Below are positions 11,807 to 19,932 of a stretch of DNA of 64,000 nt, in pieces. The stretch comes from Betaproteobacteria bacterium. GTDB lineage: Bacteria > Pseudomonadota > Gammaproteobacteria > Burkholderiales > Rhodocyclaceae. Each line of letters begins with the position of its first letter. Within the stretch, counting starts at the first letter, position 1. Location of the stretch: NCBI GenBank assembly GCA_031403915.1, contig JANNGP010000175.1, forward strand, positions 7,759 to 71,758, given 5' to 3'. The notes beneath the pieces were generated by a model that had not been told where the DNA came from, ran no database searches, and saw only the letters and a list, made by a program, of their open reading frames with translations. The translations under genes were made by a program, and so were the position numbers.

Positions 11807-12595
11807 CGCGCGGCGAAAAACCCAGTTTGTTGCATCCGAGGCCGGTGCATCAAAGGCATAGCCTTCTGACGTGAATTTCTTTAACTCATCTGCTTTCTTG
11901 ATCCGCTTATCCAGCGCAAAGCGCGCCATCAAGCCACGCGCACGCTTGGCGTAAAAGCTGACGACTTTGTATTGACCCGTGCTTTTATCACTGCCTTTTC
12001 CAGCACTCCAGTCCTCGAATACCGGCTGGATGACAGGCACAGAGAGCTGCTTCACCTTGATCGACTTGAAGTACTCCTGTGATGCCAGATTGATCAGTGC
12101 CGTGGATTTGCTCTCAGCCAAAGCCTCATTGAGTGCGTCAACAATGCGCTCACCCCAGAAGGCATACAGATCCTTGCCGCGTGAATTGTCCAGCCGCGTT
12201 CCCATCTCCAGACGATAGGCTTGCATCAGATCCAGCGGACGCAGCACACCGTAAAGCCCGGACAAAATACGCAAATGCGCTTGCGCAAATTTCAAGCCGG
12301 CCGGAGACAGGGTCGCGGCATCCAGCCCCTCATACACATCGCCGTTGAAGGCCAGCAGCGCCGGTCTGGCGTTTTCCGGCGTAAAGGGCTGCACCCAATC
12401 GGCATAGCGCGCCACATTCAGCACGGCCAGTTGATCGCTGACCCCCATCAACTTTCCCAGTTCAAGCGGGGAAAAAACGCGCAGTCGCTTGATCAGCAAC
12501 TCAGCCTGATTGAGGAACACAGGCTGCGTGTACTCATCAACCGTGAGCGGTGTCTCAAAATCCAGCGTTTTGGCAGGTGATAGAACAATGATCAT
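11789..12595 (-). CDS. yaaA: Peroxide stress protein YaaA (DUF328)
   Basis: [45 protein letters not shown] and [13 protein letters not shown]. Confidence 0.93.
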
Positions 12596-12633
12596 GGCTC
12601 ACATCCAGATGCGGGGAGTCCCGGCACAATTAT

Positions 12634-12669
12634 CCTAGAAAAAGCAGTTGAACCACGAAGAACACGGAG
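12634..12669. repeat. Unpaired left arm of the 9-bp-unit inverted-repeat family
   Basis: CCTAGAAAAAGCAGTTGAACCACGAAGAACACGGAG; near-perfect reverse complement of 14259-14289. Confidence 0.7.
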
Positions 12670-12704
12670 CTCACTCTGGGCGATTGCACTTGAAACCATA
12701 AAAC

Positions 12705-12843
12705 CCACCACAGAGACACAGAGGCACAGAGGGGTCACAGAGAAGTACAAATAAAACCTGGAAATTCGTTTCAGTGTGGCTTTTCTCTGGCAATTCGTTT
12801 GGTTTTCTCTGCGTTGCTCTGTGTCTCTGTGCCTCTGTGGTGG
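12705..12843. repeat. Inverted-repeat element with tandem 9-bp units (ACACAGAGG/ACACAGAGA variant)
   Basis: Left arm CCACCACAGAGACACAGAGGCACAGAG...AGAGAA (12705-12744); right arm TTCTCT...CTCTGTGTCTCTGTGCCTCTGTGGTGG (12805-12843); AT-rich 60-bp spacer. Confidence 0.8.
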
Positions 12844-12948
12844 ACTTTGAAGTTAAATGCGATTGCCCTGCGCGGTTTTCAAGCCGCCATTTATCCAGCG
12901 CTTCCCTTGGTACAATAGCGGATTGTTACACCCTGCAGGCTCCCCACC

Positions 12949-14124
12949 ATGAAACGCAACCGTCTTTCTTCGCGCAAACGCATCTCGGCTGACGCCACCG
13001 AACTGGGTCGTCTCGCTACCGGACTGGCGGAGTCGGGCGGCAAGCTGGAGGATGCGTTCTGGGAAAAACAACTCTCGGAACTCGTCGACAAACTGCTGCA
13101 TGATGGCGCCGAGGATGATCTGAACGCCTCACTGGATCGACTCTTTGACTCGCATGCCGCAGCGCATGATTGTCTGGCCGACATCATTGAATCCCGGGCT
13201 GAATCCTGCGTACTTTCGCATCAGGGGCAGGATTTCGACATTCTGCTTTTCAATGTGCCGATACTCGCCTGGTCGCGTTTCTCGATCCCGGCCGGAACGA
13301 TCCCCAAAAGCACATTGCAAACTCTCAAGGTTCATCTCGGTGCGCATGTCTTTTCGGCGGGCGCCCAACTGTCCCTGGCCGACTACCTGTACAGCCCGGA
13401 CCAACTGCCGCGCAGCTTTGTGGACACCTGGCAACTGATGCGCGATCTGGGTGGCGCGGCACTGAACAGCACCGCATTGAAACTTGATGTATCAAGCTTG
13501 CCGGAAACCAACCAGTTTCTGTCCGACACGCGTTATCTGATCGGCGCCATTGCCGTGCCACGCGGCATGCCCCTGTTCCGCTGGAATGAGTCGGATGCCT
13601 GCACACGCGAATCCGCGCATAAGGAGTGGGTCAAACAGGGCGGCCCGTGTCTTGAACCGCTGCTCACCGGATGTGCATTCCAGACGCTGCTTGCTGACGC
13701 GTACCATGCCGCCTGCCGCACCGCCGACATGGCCTCGCGCCCCTACTCCCTGCGCGCTTCGGTGGCCTTCCTGCAGACCACACTAGGCAAAACGGCCGAG
13801 GATTTGCGTGCGGTGATTGGCGGCTTTCATGACAAACGGCTGGAGGAATACCGGATTGGTTTCGGGCCGCGCGCTGATGACTCGATTTTTCATGGTGTCA
13901 TCTGGCCTTTACTCGGCATAGAGGATGAAACCACCGATGTCGCCGGGGAAATCGAAACCATCCTGCGCGAATCCGGCATCAAGGAAGTCGTGATTCACAA
14001 TCAGCAGTTTCCCTTCGAGTTCTGCGACGACTGCGGCGCGCCGCTTTATCCCAACGTCGAAGGCGACGCCGTACACGCTGAATTACCGGAGCAAAACAAC
14101 GCCCCGTCGCAAACCCTACATTGA
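12949..14124 (+). CDS. DUF2863-family protein
   Basis: LATGLAESGGKLEDAFWE N-terminus and C-terminal EFCDDCGAPLYP...VHAELPE...LH, recalled as typical of this betaproteobacterial family. Confidence 0.75.
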   Translation: MKRNRLSSRKRISADATELGRLATGLAESGGKLEDAFWEKQLSELVDKLLHDGAEDDLNASLDRLFDSHAAAHDCLADIIESRAESCVLSHQGQDFDILLFNVPILAWSRFSIPAGTIPKSTLQTLKVHLGAHVFSAGAQLSLADYLYSPDQLPRSFVDTWQLMRDLGGAALNSTALKLDVSSLPETNQFLSDTRYLIGAIAVPRGMPLFRWNESDACTRESAHKEWVKQGGPCLEPLLTGCAFQTLLADAYHAACRTADMASRPYSLRASVAFLQTTLGKTAEDLRAVIGGFHDKRLEEYRIGFGPRADDSIFHGVIWPLLGIEDETTDVAGEIETILRESGIKEVVIHNQQFPFEFCDDCGAPLYPNVEGDAVHAELPEQNNAPSQTLH

Positions 14125-14133
14125 TTCTTTCAT

Positions 14134-14289
14134 CCTAAAAACCCCAGTTCAAACCACAAAGAGCACGAAGTACACGAAGAAAAACCCAAAAGTTTATTGA
14201 TCACAATCCTCACCTGTTGGGTGAGTTGTCCGCTGTGGCATTGATTTATTTTCCCTTGGTGCTCTTCGTGGTTAATTGCTTTTTCTAGG
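14134..14289. repeat. Inverted-repeat element with tandem 9-bp units (ACCACGAAG family)
   Basis: Left arm AACCACAAAGAGCACGAAGTACACGAAGAAAA (14152-14183); right arm TTTTCCCTTGGTGCTCTTCGTGGTTAATTGCTTTTTCTAGG (14249-14289). Confidence 0.8.
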
Positions 14290-14295
14290 TTCATT

Positions 14296-15633
14296 ATGAG
14301 CAACACTGATCTGCTGCAACGCAGCCTCAACGCCGTCTGGCACCCGTGTACGCAAATGAAGCAGCATGCTGTTCACGATCTGCCGCTGCATTTGCCACTT
14401 ATCCCGATTGCACGCGGCCAGGGTGCCTGGCTCTATGACTTCGACGGCAAACGCTACCTCGACGGCATCAGTTCGTGGTGGGTCAATCTCTTCGGTCACG
14501 CCAACCCGCGCATCAACGCGGCGCTGCGCGCGCAGCTCGACGAACTCGAACACGTCATCCTCGCCGGCTTCACGCACCGCCCTGTCGTCGAACTCTCGGA
14601 GCGCCTCTCAGCGCTCACCGGCGGAAAACTTGGTCACTGCTTCTACGCTTCGGATGGTGCCTCGGCCACCGAGATCGCGCTGAAGATGTCGTTCCACTAT
14701 TGGCGCAATCGTAGCCGCGAAGCGAAGCAGAATTTCCTGTGTCTTGAGGGCAGCTACCACGGCGAAACCGTTGGTGCGCTGGCTGTCACCGATGTGGCCC
14801 TCTTCAAGGACGCCTACGCGCCACTGGTGCGCAGCGCCGCCACCGTGCCGACACCTGATGCACGCAATGCGCGCGATGGCGAAACACCCGTCGACGTGGC
14901 TCGTCGCGCTGCCGCCGCACTTGAGCAGCATCTGGATCAACATCATCAAAGCATCGCCGCATTGATCGTCGAGCCGCTCATCCAGTGCGCCAGCGGCATG
15001 GCCATGTACGACCCGGAATACCTGCGCCTGGCCCGTGCGTTGTGCGACCGCTACGAGGTGCATCTGATCTGCGACGAAATCGCCGTCGGCTGCGGCCGAA
15101 CCGGCACCTTCTTCGCGCATGAGCAAGCAGACATTCGCCCCGACTTTCTCTGCCTGTCGAAGGGCATCTCCGGCGGTTACCTGCCGCTCTCGGTTGTGCT
15201 GACCACAGACACGGTCTACAGCGCCTTCTTCGACGATGCCACTGCGCGCGGCTTCCTGCATTCGCATTCCTACACCGGCAATGCGCTGGCCTGCCGCGCG
15301 GCGCTCGCCACGCTAGCCATTTTTGCCGAAGACAGCGTGCTTGAACAAAACCTCGCCCGTTCGCAAAAACTCGCCGGAGCGTTCGCGTCGCTCGCCGATC
15401 ATCCGCAGGTCAAACACCTGCGCCAGCGCGGGATGATTCTGGCTTTCGATGTCGACACTGACGATGCCTGCTTCTCGCGCAAGTTCTACCGCGCCGCGCT
15501 CGACCGCGAAGCGCTGGTGCGGCCGATCGGCAACACGGTGTATGTGATGCCGCCCTACATCGTCAGCGACGACGAAATCGCCCACCTCGGCAATGCCGTT
15601 GCCGGCGCCCTGGATGAATCACTACAAACATAA
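14296..15633 (+). CDS. bioA: Adenosylmethionine-8-amino-7-oxononanoate aminotransferase
   Basis: VWHPCTQMK, DGISSWWVNLFGH, SYHGETVGA, ICDEIAVG and CLSKGISGGYLP. Confidence 0.96.
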   Translation: MSNTDLLQRSLNAVWHPCTQMKQHAVHDLPLHLPLIPIARGQGAWLYDFDGKRYLDGISSWWVNLFGHANPRINAALRAQLDELEHVILAGFTHRPVVELSERLSALTGGKLGHCFYASDGASATEIALKMSFHYWRNRSREAKQNFLCLEGSYHGETVGALAVTDVALFKDAYAPLVRSAATVPTPDARNARDGETPVDVARRAAAALEQHLDQHHQSIAALIVEPLIQCASGMAMYDPEYLRLARALCDRYEVHLICDEIAVGCGRTGTFFAHEQADIRPDFLCLSKGISGGYLPLSVVLTTDTVYSAFFDDATARGFLHSHSYTGNALACRAALATLAIFAEDSVLEQNLARSQKLAGAFASLADHPQVKHLRQRGMILAFDVDTDDACFSRKFYRAALDREALVRPIGNTVYVMPPYIVSDDEIAHLGNAVAGALDESLQT

Positions 15634-15661
15634 ACACACGCCTTGATACCCAACATTGCCC

Positions 15662-15697
15662 TTGCGCAAAAGGCTATTTTGTATTACCGTTAATACA
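15662..15697 (+). promoter_or_regulatory. Promoter and palindromic operator of the TA pair
   Basis: TTGCGC-17 nt-TACCGT sigma70-like boxes; palindrome TGTATTA-CCGT-TAATACA (15680-15697) overlaps the -10 box. Confidence 0.6.
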
Positions 15698-15720
15698 CCG
15701 CTCACCACCAAGGACTCACC

Positions 15721-15984
15721 ATGACTACGACCGTTCGCCTCCCGCATCGCCTTGAACAATCATTGGCGCAGTATTGTACCGAGGCACGGCGCAGCAAATC
15801 CGAGGTCATTATCGAATTGCTTGAACAGCGTTTTACCCCGGAACCCACGGAAAAATCGCCCTATGAAATCGCCTTCGAGGCGGGATTCATCGGCTCTTTC
15901 GCATCTGAAAACGCATCCAGCGCGCCGATAAAAGAACGCGTCAAAGCCGCCATCCGCCTGAAACACGGGCGTAGTGCCGCATGA
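15721..15984 (+). CDS. Ribbon-helix-helix (CopG-like) antitoxin
   Basis: MTTTVRLPHRLEQSL...RRSKSEVIIELL RHH pattern; ATGA overlap with the PIN gene. Confidence 0.8.
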   Translation: MTTTVRLPHRLEQSLAQYCTEARRSKSEVIIELLEQRFTPEPTEKSPYEIAFEAGFIGSFASENASSAPIKERVKAAIRLKHGRSAA

Positions 15985-16385
15985 CCGTTCTCCTGGTCGA
16001 CACCGGCCCTCTTGTCGCCCTGGCCGACCAAAGAGACAAGGCTCACATACGTTGCACGAAGTTCCTCAAGGACTATCGAGGCCGTTTGCTCACCACTTGG
16101 GCGGTACTTACCGAATTTTCCCACCTCGCACCCTCTGTTGCGTCGACACTGCCGCTCTGCCGCTGGATTGAGCGTGGCGGACTGGACCTTATGCCTCTCG
16201 GCAAGGAAGAACTGATTACCGCCATTGACTGGATCAACCGCTATGCCGATCGACCGATGGATCTTGCGGATGCTTCGCTTGTCGTTGCCGCACTAAAAAC
16301 CGGTAGCGTTTCGATCTGGACACTCGATCGCAACGATTTCGAAACGTATCGTCTGCCGGGGCGGAAGCGCTTCCAGCTGGTTTGA
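15981..16385 (+). CDS. vapC: PIN-domain toxin (VapC-like)
   Basis: LLVDTGPLVAL, VLTE, MDLADASLV and IWTLDRNDF acidic PIN motifs. Confidence 0.85.
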   Translation: MTVLLVDTGPLVALADQRDKAHIRCTKFLKDYRGRLLTTWAVLTEFSHLAPSVASTLPLCRWIERGGLDLMPLGKEELITAIDWINRYADRPMDLADASLVVAALKTGSVSIWTLDRNDFETYRLPGRKRFQLV

Positions 16386-16390
16386 CTTTC

Positions 16391-17557
16391 ATGCCCGAAC
16401 CCAAACTACTTTCCGACCTTGCTGCCGAACTCGCGCAGCTTGACGATGCTGGCCTCAAGCGCCGCCGCTGCACGCTGCACACACCTTGCGGCCCGCTGGC
16501 GCAGGTCAATGGCCGTGAACTGATCAGCTTTTGCAGCAACGATTATCTGGGCCTGGCCAACGATACGGCACTGATCGCGGCGGCACGCGCCGGCGCGGCA
16601 CAGTGGGGCGTCGGCTGCGGCGCCTCGCACCTTGTGAGCGGCCACCTCGAACCACACGAAGCACTTGAGCAACGGCTCGCCGCCTTTACCGGTTTCCCTC
16701 GTGCACTGTTGTTCACCACCGGCTACATGGCCAATCTCGGCATCGTCCCGGCGCTGGTCGGGCGCGGCGATGCCATCTTCGCCGACAAACTCAATCACGC
16801 CTCACTGATCGATGCCGTGCAACTCTCGCGCGCCGAGAGCCATCGCTACCCGCACGGCGATCTCGCCGCGCTGGAAAAACTGCTCGCCGCTAGCAGCGCA
16901 AAGCGCAAGCTGATTCTCACCGACTGTGTGTTCAGCATGGACGGCGACCTCGCACCGCTGCCCGGCCTGCTCGAACTCGCCGAGCGCTACGACGCCTGGC
17001 TGGTGGTCGATGATGCGCACGGTTTCGGTGTTTTGGGCAAGCAAGGGCGAGGCAGCCTCGCGCACTTCGGCATCAAAGCTCACCCACGCATCGTCTACAT
17101 GGGCACGCTGGGCAAGGCAGCCGGCGGCGCGGGGGCATTCGTCGCCGGCGCGGAGACCGTGATCGAATGGCTGGTGCAGCGCGCCCGCACTTACATCTTT
17201 ACCACCGGTTCCAGCCCGGTCATCGCCTGTGCGCTGCTGGCCGCACTTGATTTGATCGAAGCTGGCGACGCCCGTCGCAGCCACCTCATCCAACTCGCCG
17301 CGCAGTTGCGCGCCGGCCTGGCCGGCACGCGCTGGCAACTGATGCCCTCGCCGACCGCCATTCAGCCGGTACTGATCGGCGACAACCACGAAGCACTGCG
17401 CGTGGCCAATGCGCTGTTCGAACGCGGACTGTGGGTACCGGCCATCCGCCCGCCAACCGTACCCAAGGGCACAGCGCGACTACGCATCTCGCTCTCGGCG
17501 GCACACAGCACAGCACAGGTTGAGCAACTAATCAGCGCGCTGCGGGATCTGGCATGA
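16391..17557 (+). CDS. bioF: 8-amino-7-oxononanoate synthase
   Basis: FCSNDYLGLA, DKLNHASLID, VFSMDGD, DDAHGFG and TLGKAAG. Confidence 0.96.
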   Translation: MPEPKLLSDLAAELAQLDDAGLKRRRCTLHTPCGPLAQVNGRELISFCSNDYLGLANDTALIAAARAGAAQWGVGCGASHLVSGHLEPHEALEQRLAAFTGFPRALLFTTGYMANLGIVPALVGRGDAIFADKLNHASLIDAVQLSRAESHRYPHGDLAALEKLLAASSAKRKLILTDCVFSMDGDLAPLPGLLELAERYDAWLVVDDAHGFGVLGKQGRGSLAHFGIKAHPRIVYMGTLGKAAGGAGAFVAGAETVIEWLVQRARTYIFTTGSSPVIACALLAALDLIEAGDARRSHLIQLAAQLRAGLAGTRWQLMPSPTAIQPVLIGDNHEALRVANALFERGLWVPAIRPPTVPKGTARLRISLSAAHSTAQVEQLISALRDLA

Positions 17558-18369
17558 GCGGGCTGCGCGTCACCGCCTTCGGCAAGGGGCGCGACCTCGC
17601 GCTGATTCACGGCTGGGGCTTCGGCAGCGCCGCATGGGAGGGCGTCGGCGACGCACTTGCGCAGCGCTTCCGCGTCCATCTCATTTCACTTCCAGGATAC
17701 AACCGGCCTGCAACACCCGTGGATTGGCGTTCTTCAGACAAACAAGCCGAAGAGGCGCATGAATACTTCCTTTCAGAGCAGGCCTCTTTCGAAGCCACAG
17801 CACAAGCGCTTGCTGCGGCACTGCCAACCGGTTGCGCCCTCTGTGGCTGGTCGCTCGGCGCGCAGCTCGCCATGCAAGCCACCTTGTGTTCGCCCGAACA
17901 TTGCTCACGCCTTATTCTCGTCGGCGCGACGCCGCGTTTCGTGCAGGCCGAGGGCTGGCTGCATGCCCAACCACCCGCACTGCTCGACACCTTTTGCACC
18001 AATGTTGCACAGGATACTGCTGTCACACTGCAACGTTTTGCCGCCCTGCTCAATCAAGGCGATTTCCGTGCCCGCGCCAACACCCGCTGGCTCAACGAAC
18101 GCAGCACAACCATAGACGCCTTGACCTTGATGCACGGGCTGCACTGGCTACGCAACGTCGACCTGCGCGAACAAGTGGCAAACATCGCGCTGCCAACACG
18201 GCTGATACACGGCGACCACGACCCGCTGATGCCGCTCGCGGCGGCCCAATGGCTGAACGACACACTGCCCGACTCAACACTCGAAGTATTCGCAGGCGCG
18301 GCGCACGCGCCTTTCCTCAACGACCCCGAACGTTTTGTCTCGCTGCTCACCCATGCTGCCCTCAATTAA
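17554..18369 (+). CDS. bioH: Pimeloyl-ACP methyl ester esterase
   Basis: IHGWG, GWSLG nucleophile motif, HGDHDPL and AHAPF; position within the bio operon. Confidence 0.88.
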   Translation: MSGLRVTAFGKGRDLALIHGWGFGSAAWEGVGDALAQRFRVHLISLPGYNRPATPVDWRSSDKQAEEAHEYFLSEQASFEATAQALAAALPTGCALCGWSLGAQLAMQATLCSPEHCSRLILVGATPRFVQAEGWLHAQPPALLDTFCTNVAQDTAVTLQRFAALLNQGDFRARANTRWLNERSTTIDALTLMHGLHWLRNVDLREQVANIALPTRLIHGDHDPLMPLAAAQWLNDTLPDSTLEVFAGAAHAPFLNDPERFVSLLTHAALN

Positions 18370-19123
18370 AGAACGCGTTCGCGAATCGTTTGACCGTGCC
18401 GCCGCAACCTACGACGGCGCCGCCGTCGTCCAGCGCCGCGTTTGTGATCGCCTGCTTGAAGCTTTCGACCCAATCTGGAGCGCCCCCACGCGCATACTCG
18501 ATGCCGGCTGTGGCACCGGCTACGGCGCGCGCCGGTTGCGCACGCGCTGGCCGCAGGCGCATATCACCGGCGTGGACTTTGCACCGTCGATGCTCGCCAT
18601 TGCCGGCCCGGCCACCGACGCGTGTTTCACCGCCGACATCGAAGCCTTGCCGTTCGAGCAACAAAGTTTTGATCTCTGGTGGTCCAGCCTCTCGATTCAG
18701 TGGTGCGACAATGACCGGGTATTTCCCGAAGCGGCGCGCGTGTTGCGCAAGGGTGGGCAACTTGCCGTCAGCACGCTCGGCCCCGCCACCTTTCAGGAAC
18801 TGCGTGACGCTTTTTCCGGCGTCGACCAGCACCGCCACACCTATCCCTTCAGCGAGCCGGATGCCATTCGTGACAGCATCGCTGCTGCCGGCTTCCGCGA
18901 CATCACCCTGCTGCGCGAAAAGCACACGGTGCACTACCCCGAGCTCAAATCGCTGCTACGTGCGGTCAAGGATATCGGCGCGCATAATGTCGGCGAAGGC
19001 GCGCGCAGCGGCATGATGGGGCGCACCGCCTGGGGGAAAGTTCAGGCCGCCTACGAGAAGCACCGGCAGCCGGAGGGCCTGCCAGCCAGCTACGATGTGA
19101 TTCTCTGCTATGCGAAGAAATAA
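18353..19123 (+). CDS. bioC: Malonyl-ACP O-methyltransferase
   Basis: SFDRAAATYDGAAVVQR, LDAGCGTG, SSLSIQWC and LPASYDVI. Confidence 0.93.
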   Translation: MLPSIKERVRESFDRAAATYDGAAVVQRRVCDRLLEAFDPIWSAPTRILDAGCGTGYGARRLRTRWPQAHITGVDFAPSMLAIAGPATDACFTADIEALPFEQQSFDLWWSSLSIQWCDNDRVFPEAARVLRKGGQLAVSTLGPATFQELRDAFSGVDQHRHTYPFSEPDAIRDSIAAAGFRDITLLREKHTVHYPELKSLLRAVKDIGAHNVGEGARSGMMGRTAWGKVQAAYEKHRQPEGLPASYDVILCYAKK

Positions 19124-19124
19124 G

Positions 19125-19260
19125 CTCAGAAACCCAATTAACCACGAAGCTCACGAAGGACACGAAAAAAAGCAATAACATTGAACACTTTCTGAAATTT
19201 CCTGTTTCTCTTTGTGCTCTTCGTGTTCTTCGTGTTCTTCGTGGTTATCTGCCTTTTCAA
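19125..19260. repeat. Inverted-repeat element with tandem 9-bp units (ACCACGAAG family)
   Basis: Left arm AATTAACCACGAAGCTCACGAAGGACACGAA; right arm CTTTGTGCTCTTCGTGTTCTTCGTGTTCTTCGTGGTTATCTGCCTTTTC; fills the bioC-bioD gap. Confidence 0.85.
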
Positions 19261-19263
19261 ACT

Positions 19264-19932
19264 ATGAACTCATCTAACAAATCCGCCTGGTTCATCACCG
19301 GTACCGACACTGAAGTCGGCAAGACTTTCGTCACCTGCGCCCTGCTGCACGCCTTGCGCAACCAGGGTGTCAAGGCCATCGGCATGAAGCCGGTCTCGGC
19401 CGGCACCGATGCCGACGGCAAGAATGAGGATGTCGAACAGCTGATTGCCGCCGCTGGCGTCAAGGCACCGCGCGAACTGATCAACCCCTACCTGTTTGCG
19501 CCGGCCATTGCACCGCACATCAGCGCCGCAGCAGAAGGTCGCAGCATCGATATCGCGCACATCGTCACGGCTTTTGAATCGCTGCGCACAATGGCGGATG
19601 CGGTCCTCATCGAAGGCGTCGGAGGTTTCTGCGTACCGCTCGGGCCCAATACCGACACCGCGGATATGGCCGAAGCACTGGGGCTGCCGGTGATTCTCAT
19701 TGTCGGCATGCGTCTCGGCTGCATCAACCACGCGCTGCTCACACAGCAGGCCATCGCCGCCCGTGGCCTGACGCTCGCCGGCTGGATCGCCAACCGTATT
19801 GATCCGGATATGGCCTGCCTCGAGGAAAACCTAGCGACACTCAAAGCGCGAATCAATGCACCGCTGCTCGGCGTCATTCCGCCCAACAGCGCGCCTGAAA
19901 CTGCAGCGGCTTTAATCAGGCTCCCTGACTAA
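19264..19932 (+). CDS. bioD: Dethiobiotin synthase
   Basis: FITGTDTEVGKT, MKPVSAG, IEGVGG and RLGCINHALLT. Confidence 0.96.
   Translation: MNSSNKSAWFITGTDTEVGKTFVTCALLHALRNQGVKAIGMKPVSAGTDADGKNEDVEQLIAAAGVKAPRELINPYLFAPAIAPHISAAAEGRSIDIAHIVTAFESLRTMADAVLIEGVGGFCVPLGPNTDTADMAEALGLPVILIVGMRLGCINHALLTQQAIAARGLTLAGWIANRIDPDMACLEENLATLKARINAPLLGVIPPNSAPETAAALIRLPD

Follow-up and report, generated by a model that had tools for sequence, protein, structure and literature searches.

Short inverted-repeat elements occupy junctions around the biotin genes in a stretch of 64,000 nucleotides from a Rhodocyclaceae genome (hereafter the window; C175:7759-71758 of genome G000, a 95%-complete assembly of 3.09 Mb in 260 contigs), and comparison with congeners shows that these elements are insertions, landing in the few bases between genes. 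Three complete elements and one lone arm are present, the complete ones in the yaaA/DUF2863, DUF2863/bioA and bioC/bioD gaps, and in each of these two arms of tandem heptamers face each other across a spacer. We consider it probable that the elements arrived by transposition-like insertion, and we are confident that they are gene-less members of a family whose arms elsewhere enclose a gene for a small protein of the GxxExxY family. The best explanation that we can offer, and one that we hold to be evenly poised between right and wrong, is that they are non-autonomous copies of a small transposable family, the full form of which carries a single GxxExxY nuclease gene.

The evidence for insertion comes from the gene junctions. 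Neither an exact look-up of the BioD protein nor a metagenome search with a 30-mer taken from the 3' end of bioC found near-identical strains, and with no close strain available the comparison was made with congeners, the BioA orthologues of 18 of which are 80-86% identical. The gap between the DUF2863 gene and bioA measures 4-20 nt in nine congeners versus 171 nt in the window; it holds a different, CACAGAG-type element in G013 and another insert in G008. In six of ten congeners bioC and bioD overlap in an ATGA, and the window element sits exactly there. Likewise, the trpE/trpG junction, which lies outside the window, is empty (0-25 nt) in five relatives and contains a full GxxExxY cassette in eight congeners.

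A footprint of such an insertion was found in a sister copy on contig C254, which reads cacaag-TAATGAAT-(element)-TAATGAAT-cacgcg. When its flanks are joined with one 8-mer, the genomes G004, G003 and G011 match straight across the joint, and the orthologous empty site has a single cacaagTAATGAATcaagcc in G004 (reading ...tatcacaagTAATGAATcaagccctg..., with one TAATGAAT) and a single TGATGAAC in G011. The orthologous empty site thus confirms a target-site duplication of 8 bp. Within the duplicated 8-mer a stop (TAA) and a start (ATG) overlap, the upstream stop being kept by the left copy and the downstream start by the right one; where the target is such an overlap (e.g., TAATGA), each gene thus retains its signal and both survive the insertion. 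The same junction has been colonised in other species as well, namely by a CGCAGAG-type hairpin in G008 and by a REP-like repeat in G012, to which we return below.

Besides C254, five copies carry duplications of 8-11 bp (C49, C71, C89 and two elements on C218). Direct repeats of 9-11 bp lie outside the conserved termini in three of the six CACAGAG-type copies (TTTTACTGTC on C71, GGGCGTCCC on C218 and GTGTGCAAGGA on C89), while 3 of 60 elements of the CACGAAG/CACGGAG type have direct repeats of 8-9 bp located 17-27 nt outside the arms, where ~0.3 were expected (CCTTCACAC on C49, CTTGAATC on C218 and TAATGAAT on C254). Over all types, direct repeats of at least 8 nt number 7 against 1.5 expected, two of the seven being artefacts (internal palindromes or nesting); because this bulk excess is modest, the claim of duplication rests on the positionally exact cases together with the one orthologous empty site. 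At the bioC/bioD junction, the ancestor would have read ...GAAG-AAATGAAC-TCA..., and the present left (AAATAAGC) and right (CTATGAAC) 8-mers each match it at 6 of 8 positions, with implied flanks of 17 and 18 nt, as in the clean cases. This copy likely inserted through duplication of a stop/start overlap, as at C254, the 8-mers being compatible with such an event and not proof of it.

The elements of the window (Table 1) had been described in an earlier note made from the sequence alone, and both the three elements and the lone arm lie where it had placed them, their patterns being far above chance: CACGAAGNNCACGAAG, with at most two mismatches, matches the window 10 times against 0.65 expected (a count of 10 was reached in 0 of 100 shuffles) and CACAGAGNCACAGAG 4 times against 0.49. 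Several details of that description had to be revised. The proposed units of 9 bp apply to the two CACGAAG-type elements, and Tandem Repeats Finder gives a period of 8 for the CACAGAG arms versus 9 for the CACGAAG arms. The CACAGAG-type element, in the divergent yaaA/DUF2863 intergenic region, is present at 12705-12843 as first described and, judged by its conserved inverted termini, extends beyond these limits; its arms (~12705-12745 and ~12806-12843) consist of units reading CACAGAG-A-CACAGAG-G-CACAGAG... and their complement. Termini of ~30 nt are conserved in this type, of which the genome holds five more copies; four of these can be aligned over their full length. An outer flank shared by most arms does exist (CCTAGAAAAAGCAGTT), as only one of the two end types of the CACGAAG/CACGGAG subfamily, which has an A end, (n)GAAAAAGCAGTTAAC, and a B end, CCTTAAAACCTCAGTTCAAAC; 10 of the 11 elements with both ends classifiable combine an A with a B end. 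The bioA copy belongs to a coherent lineage of this subfamily with distinct A and B ends and an inner hairpin CTCACC-N4-GGGTGAG, seen in its ~75-nt spacer as CTCACC-TGTT-GGGTGAG, and its right arm is partly decayed. It fills the gap from the DUF2863 stop (14122-14124) to the bioA ATG (14296), whereas the third element lies between the bioC stop TAA (19121-19123) and the bioD ATG (19264); the distances of 6 nt and 2-3 nt to the two start codons agree with those given previously. The lone arm is truncated at the start of the neighbouring element, its flank fits the A-end consensus, and no downstream partner for it is present.

Table 1. Elements, GxxExxY genes and neighbouring genes (window positions unless a contig is named).
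Feature	Position	Strand	Remarks
Lone arm, CACGAAG-type	12634-12669	+	A-type end (CCTAGAAAAAGCAGTTGAAC) and two units, CACGAAG-AA-CACGGAG
Complete element, CACAGAG-type, 191 bp	12678-12868	none	8-nt period; termini GGGCGATTGCA / TGCGATTGCCC
Complete element, CACGAAG-type	14134-14289	none	B end left, A end right; 9-nt period
Complete element, CACGAAG-type	19125-19261	none	137 bp; 3 units left, 4 right; 9-nt period
GxxExxY gene	C46:9141-9518		fills 384-nt spacer of a CACRGAG pair; ATG abuts last unit
GxxExxY gene	C125		CGCAGAGG arms
GxxExxY gene	C218		CACAACG arms; only start lies inside arm, giving LINHNEHNGHNE-type N-terminus
yaaA	11789-12595	-	
DUF2863 gene, 391 aa	12949-14124		E 1e-147
bioA	14296-15633	+	NCBIfam TIGR00508, E 6e-158
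VapB-like / PIN (VapC-like) pair	15721-16385		
bioF	16382-17557		
bioH	17554-18369		
bioC	18335-19123	+	NCBIfam TIGR02072, E 2e-63; stop TAA abuts third element
bioD	19264-19932	+	NCBIfam TIGR00347, E 1e-48; starts 2-3 nt past third element

These elements represent a large superfamily. A scan of the 3.09 Mb for in-phase CAC[ACG][AG]AG units, with arms taken as neighbours within 400 nt, yielded 283 arms and at least 122 convergent pairs; otherwise neighbours were oriented '++' twice, '--' once and never divergently. With 122 convergent cases against 3 tandem and 0 divergent ones, the unit of the family is a pair of arms. Further types were picked up by a motif-free scan, namely CGCAGAG (55 arrays), CACAACG (34), CGCAAAG (16) and CACGGCG, which brings the total to more than 320 arm arrays, and all arm types fit C-R-C-N-R-M-G. 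An arm comprises 2-4 tandem heptamers (CACGAAG, CACCAAG, CACRGAG, CGCAGAG and others) at 8-10 nt spacing, the commonest unit-spacing patterns being (2,2) and (1,2,3), while the arm-arm spacers measure 5-384 nt, their lengths peaking at about 15-27, 36-51 and 73-75 nt; the largest of them, 384 nt, contains a GxxExxY gene. When genes are called crudely, 104 of the 118 pairs fall between genes, which are tandem in 72 cases, convergent in 20 and divergent in 12, and since divergent gaps make up 26% of the intergenic length, they are under-used by the elements.

Outside the CACGAAG/CACGGAG arms, TTAAC beside the first unit is followed by an A-run, and conservation fades ~17-25 nt out; as the information content drops to almost nothing farther than ~17 nt from the arms, the tips of the elements are not conserved. 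Among the spacers of at least 30 nt, 25 of 84 cluster with another and 59 are unique to their copy, hence most copies are not recent whole-element duplicates. Decay of gene-bearing cassettes in place into short copies was considered and rejected, because the spacers hold no GxxExxY remnants, the copies are insertions relative to congeners and some of them have duplicated their target site; the tblastn search of 16 GxxExxY proteins against all spacers recovered only the real gene, the short spacers leaving it little power. Separately, several elements (C152:4452-4530, C154:8426, C207:4935, C228:28437-28585, C93:17029-17136 and C121:5343) have, within or beside their arms, copies of a small hairpin, AGCGCGAAGCCTCCCTG(A/T)AGAGGGAC, which looks like a second, still smaller nested repeat family.

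The genome has three TIGR04256 (GxxExxY, PF13366) genes and no TIGR02436 gene, and all three lie between heptamer arms, with the stop just before the right arm in each case. The earlier note had stated that similar repeats flank GxxExxY genes in other bacteria, and this holds in the present genome, where the start inside the arm on C218 even gives the type of N-terminus that it had named. The checks it had proposed, namely further genome-wide copies, an enclosed open reading frame (ORF) and empty orthologous sites, likewise turned out positive, in the form of the 122 pairs, of the GxxExxY ORF on C46 (the other two genes having analogous arms) and of the empty DUF2863/bioA, bioC/bioD and C254 junctions. 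In relatives, GxxExxY genes recur at three orthologous junctions (trpE/trpG, upstream of ileS and pilB/pilC), their arm types differ by lineage (CACRGAG, CGCAGAG, CACAGAG with an 8-nt period, CACCAAG in G012 and CACGAAG in G021), and the protein clades follow arm type and site. CACGAAG arms of 9-nt period placed 375-405 nt apart were found in 6 of 401 genomes of the phylum (reversed control pattern, 0), and translation of these loci recovered, at four of them, a GxxExxY ORF that starts directly after the last unit. Since CACRGAG, CACCAAG and CACGAAG arms each enclose GxxExxY somewhere, every arm type of the window has a full-length counterpart.

Abundance of arms and presence of the gene also go together. 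Across 31 genomes with 0-371 three-unit arms each, the arm count correlates with gene presence (Spearman 0.71, p 8e-6, phylogeny being ignored), and the gene was found in 10 of 16 genomes with at least 5 arms and in 0 of 15 with fewer (Fisher p 2.5e-4); among species of one genus the arm load varies from 0 to ~290. The exact arm made of TTAAC and three CACGAAG units joined by NN is present on at least 118 contigs of other genomes (122 arms). Judged by the titles of these contigs, the same 24 specified bases of arm are spread over no fewer than a dozen phyla, among them Verrucomicrobiota, Chloroflexota, Acidobacteriota, Planctomycetota and Spirochaetota, as well as several proteobacterial classes; the copies examined there are gene-less, and every detected partner arm lies 11-302 nt away.

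The trpE/trpG junction deserves separate mention, as three GxxExxY clades, each with its own arm type, share it in different congeners (cassette loci L003, L049, L050, L053, L055, L056, L057 and L062), and the right outer flank of the cassette (GAAAGAGG / GAAAGG) is located where trpG needs a ribosome-binding site. In G021 the same gap (locus L082, 179 nt) holds a nested pair of gene-less hairpins, the inner one with a CACCAAGG left arm and a CGCAAAGG right arm, i.e., with different heptamer types.

The protein itself, of 125 aa, matches Pfam PF13366 with E 1e-39, while a Cas4 match is sub-threshold. Sixteen GxxExxY sequences contain invariant D67, E77, K79 and Q91xxxY95, which we take to be the D...ExK and QxxxY motifs of RecB/Cas4-type nucleases. 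A Foldseek search with the AlphaFold model (predicted local distance difference test, pLDDT, 94.4) placed Cas4 SSO0001, Pcal_0546 and the lambda-exonuclease family at the top, with only E ~1e-3 and template-modelling (TM) scores of ~0.5, and solved structures searched by GxxExxY sequence gave no match. On the basis of model and motifs, GxxExxY is a predicted PD-(D/E)XK nuclease with a Cas4/RecB-like core.

How might such a protein act on the arms? Across arms, the heptamer, the number of units and the 8-10-nt phasing are conserved, and complementarity is not. At positions between units, the two arms of an element carry the same base in 11.9% of cases versus 17.1 +/- 2.2% for shuffled same-type partners, and their heptamers match in 56% versus 63%; being no more alike than random partners of the same type, the two arms of one element therefore do not represent copies of one sequence. 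As no left-right co-variation was found beyond the heptamer type, an origin by fold-back copying was rejected, and so was selection for perfect stems. Chimeric elements occur (CACGAAG with CACAGAG arms; CACCAAGG with CGCAAAGG), and in one alignable lineage CACGAAG has changed to CACGGAG at all six units at once. Because only heptamers and spacing are conserved, because the arms need no complementarity and because subfamilies with unrelated termini share the architecture, we lean towards the view that the heptamer arrays are iteron-like protein-binding sites and not just halves of a stem. Moreover, in view of the unconserved tips and of the 8-11-bp duplications made by two subfamilies whose termini are unrelated, the sequences suggest that the cut is placed by distance from the array.

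According to the explanation that we prefer, an element would have a flank of 17-35 nt at each end, then an inward-reading array of 2-4 heptamers, and between the arrays either the nuclease ORF or a spacer that varies from 5 to 170 nt. The arrays would be bound by a protein that cuts at a measured distance outside them, and this protein would be the cognate GxxExxY nuclease supplied in trans, perhaps aided by host repair or by a further enzyme. As the mobilising enzyme, GxxExxY is the candidate that we prefer, although we rate its role as rather less likely than not. The wider proposal, in which GxxExxY proteins would carry out the transposition of a hitherto unrecognised class of transposable elements spanning many phyla, seems unlikely to us; in such a class, a lone 125-aa Cas4/RecB-like nuclease would bind the phased arrays in both arms, cut outside them at a measured distance and, with host repair, produce insertions with 8-11-bp duplications, one nuclease would serve hundreds of gene-less copies per genome, and the duplication of stop/start overlaps would let elements settle harmlessly inside operons.

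A number of observations weigh against the transposable-family explanation. A clean duplication was found in only ~6 of 121 elements, its genome-wide excess being modest; at bioC/bioD the duplication is at best half preserved (4 of 8 positions), and the two outer sides of the bioA copy have only TTCAT in common, which may be a decayed duplication. The link between nuclease and arms is one of correlation only: as the gene is physically joined to its arms, co-inheritance alone could match protein clade to arm type, and the co-occurrence statistics, as stated, take no account of phylogeny. The cassettes at the same three junctions across several species look vertically stable, not actively mobile. 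Arms without a GxxExxY gene are found in G016 (214 arms, 87% complete), G013, G027 and G028, the two most abundant arm types of the present genome, CACGAAG and CACCAAG, have no cognate gene in its 95%-complete assembly, and none of the 122 exact arms on the 118 contigs of other genomes adjoins a GxxExxY gene. Finally, target duplications normally point to DDE-type or integrase-type strand transfer, and we know of no transposase made only of a PD-(D/E)XK nuclease.

Several of these points favour the main rival, according to which the elements are ordinary miniature inverted-repeat transposable elements (MITEs) moved by an unlinked conventional DDE-type transposase, GxxExxY being a passenger or a settler between the arms. 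Duplications of 8-11 bp are typical of DDE transposition, and the arm-rich genomes lacking the gene (such as G016), the failure of any sampled CACGAAG arm elsewhere to adjoin it and the lack of a known PD-(D/E)XK-only transposase all fit such a scenario. It is harder to reconcile with the absence of any arm-bounded element of insertion-sequence size, the largest spacing being 384 nt here and, for the partners detected among the 122 arms elsewhere, at most 302 nt, although this is weak evidence because insertion sequences are often missing from fragmented assemblies. The unconserved tips, the unrelated termini (GGGCGATTGCA vs nGAAAAAGCAG) that both occur with duplications, and the correlation of gene presence with arm abundance speak against it as well, and we regard this rival as fairly improbable.

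Another possibility is that the dispersed arms serve as marks by which the nuclease recognises single-stranded or incoming DNA, for example to modulate transformation, recombination or defence, while the repeats spread by other means and the nuclease's own sites frame its gene for regulation; such a role would be compatible with mobility. A layout of this kind has been published for the GIY-YIG nucleases of the Ssn family and their NTS/SRM repeats, where a hairpin repeat dispersed in as many as hundreds of copies flanks the gene on both sides, the two are found together across phyla, and cleavage of single-stranded DNA and an effect on transformation were shown experimentally (Chenal et al., 2025; PMC11893778). 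The Cas4/lambda-exonuclease-like core of GxxExxY would suggest action on single strands or DNA ends, and the positional stability of the cassettes across species agrees with this role. However, taken alone it explains neither the duplicating insertions nor the 0 to 288-fold difference in copy number among congeners, the superfamily differs (PD-(D/E)XK, not GIY-YIG), and the repeat is a two-arm heptamer array and not a single ~30-nt hairpin. We consider this role distinctly improbable.

We attach still less probability, and in fact very little, to the idea that the elements are regulatory at the RNA level and were selected in place as bidirectional terminators, attenuators, mRNA stabilisers or RNase III processing sites that would tune the expression of operons such as bio. 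Long mRNA hairpins, proposed in the earlier note, are indeed predicted: the bioC/bioD element folds with -48.7 kcal/mol (z -9.1) and the CACAGAG-type element with its true ends with -95 kcal/mol (z -8.2), the bioA element folding more weakly (z -2.6) because its right arm has decayed. Moreover, A-rich and T-rich runs flank the CACGAAG-type stems, and the elements are enriched after genes and depleted between divergent ones. Yet a scan of 12400-19500 for intrinsic terminators (a short G+C-rich stem with a loop of 3-8 nt and a T-run immediately behind it) reported none of the three elements, and Rfam 15 gave no match at the gathering score, only two spurious plant-miRNA hairpin matches far below threshold; with both searches negative, Rho-independent terminators and a known RNA family were rejected. 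Relatives run the same operon with overlapping or abutting genes and without the element, the arms need not be complementary, and the elements are insertions with target duplications. An RNA effect is more likely a consequence of the elements than the reason for their existence. Inserted copies would be transcribed along with the bio genes and form long hairpins, the base of which would bring the upstream stop and the downstream start together again; speculatively, the hairpin may thus help preserve coupled translation.

Mobilisation as repetitive extragenic palindromes (REPs) or REPINs by a RAYT, i.e., an IS200/IS605-type Y1 transposase, has next to no probability here, since, even though the elements are short, palindromic, intergenic, highly repeated and inversely paired like REPINs and the genome contains two Y1_Tnp matches, the RAYT-like gene (C67:20024-20344) is flanked by separate, unrelated REPs of its own (GTCGGCCTTCAGGCCGAC... 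/ ...CCCGACCTACAA), the Y1 gene on C50 is without heptamer arms, and duplications are present, unlike in IS200/IS605-type insertion, which gives none. Thus, from the earlier proposal of a REP/MITE-like family or the emptied boundaries of a mobile cassette, mobile insertions with duplications remain, whereas REP/RAYT membership is refuted for this genome and emptying in place has been dropped. The C67 locus is a classical REPtron (C67:19700-20503), with several REP copies around the RAYT-like gene, and the repeat that fills the C254-orthologous junction in G012 (L217) is REP-like and similar to these REPs in sequence.

The neighbouring genes offer some further observations. The vapC-like gene of the toxin-antitoxin pair between bioA and bioF overlaps the bioF start; among the congeners examined this pair is common only to G008, and bioA and bioF adjoin directly in most of them, other inserts being found in G007 (1.1 kb) and G003 (2.6 kb). 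The DUF2863 gene, the product of which has a CxxC in its tail (FCDDCGAPLYPN), abuts or nearly abuts bioA in every congener examined, and this proximity suggests a functional link to biotin synthesis. Following the insertion, the stretch around the bioD start (19240-19266, GCCTTTTCAAACTATG) contains no recognisable Shine-Dalgarno sequence ahead of the ATG, and the ancestral ATGA-overlap coupling of bioC and bioD has been lost in the window.

In the searchable literature we found nothing that describes this repeat class or links GxxExxY to such repeats; GxxExxY, PF13366 or PDDEXK_3 appear in few of the papers found, none with a function, the main listing being a 2012 survey of PD-(D/E)XK proteins. 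New here are the empty sites at two bio junctions and the duplication verified against an orthologous empty site, and also the manner in which duplication keeps both signals of a stop/start overlap intact, the absence of co-variation between arms, and the genus-level link of arm load with gene presence. The elements explain many odd gaps in tightly coupled operons, as well as spurious N-terminal extensions such as "NHEEHE". No function is known for the very large family PF13366/GxxExxY, and the window ties it to a concrete, testable behaviour. If the nuclease is the driver, it would represent a new enzyme class in transposition and possibly a source of compact nucleases whose specificity follows the repeat sequence; if it is not, this would be a second, independent case of a nuclease-repeat partnership of the Ssn type.

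By analogy, the system would be of the kind in which a nuclease gene is partnered with dispersed repeats, as in RAYT/REP and Ssn/NTS. Like REP/REPIN-RAYT systems, it comprises intergenic palindromic repeats in hundreds of copies, with inverted pairs and variable loops, and a single small nuclease-type gene framed by the same repeats, and its copy number varies widely among related species; unlike them, it has a PD-(D/E)XK fold in place of HUH Y1, heptamer arrays in place of a single REP hairpin, and target-site duplications of 8-11 bp. The likeness to Ssn/NTS is one of layout only, a nuclease gene framed on both sides by a dispersed repeat, whereas nuclease superfamily and repeat architecture are unrelated and the gene-less copies described here bear transposon-like insertion footprints. 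MITEs resemble our elements in being non-coding, multicopy, nested and clustered, with a length of 90-200 bp, inverted ends and target-site duplications, one of which we verified against an orthologous empty site; they differ in that no parent DDE insertion sequence was found for the present elements, in which the internal heptamer arrays and not the tips are conserved, most spacers are unique, and the only gene seen between arms encodes a 125-aa nuclease. Finally, free-standing homing endonuclease genes share with GxxExxY the lone small nuclease gene, its sporadic presence and its recurrence at the same junction in different species, but in the family described here the gene-less form is far commoner than the gene and occurs at unrelated loci, and its insertions leave target duplications, not precise homing junctions.

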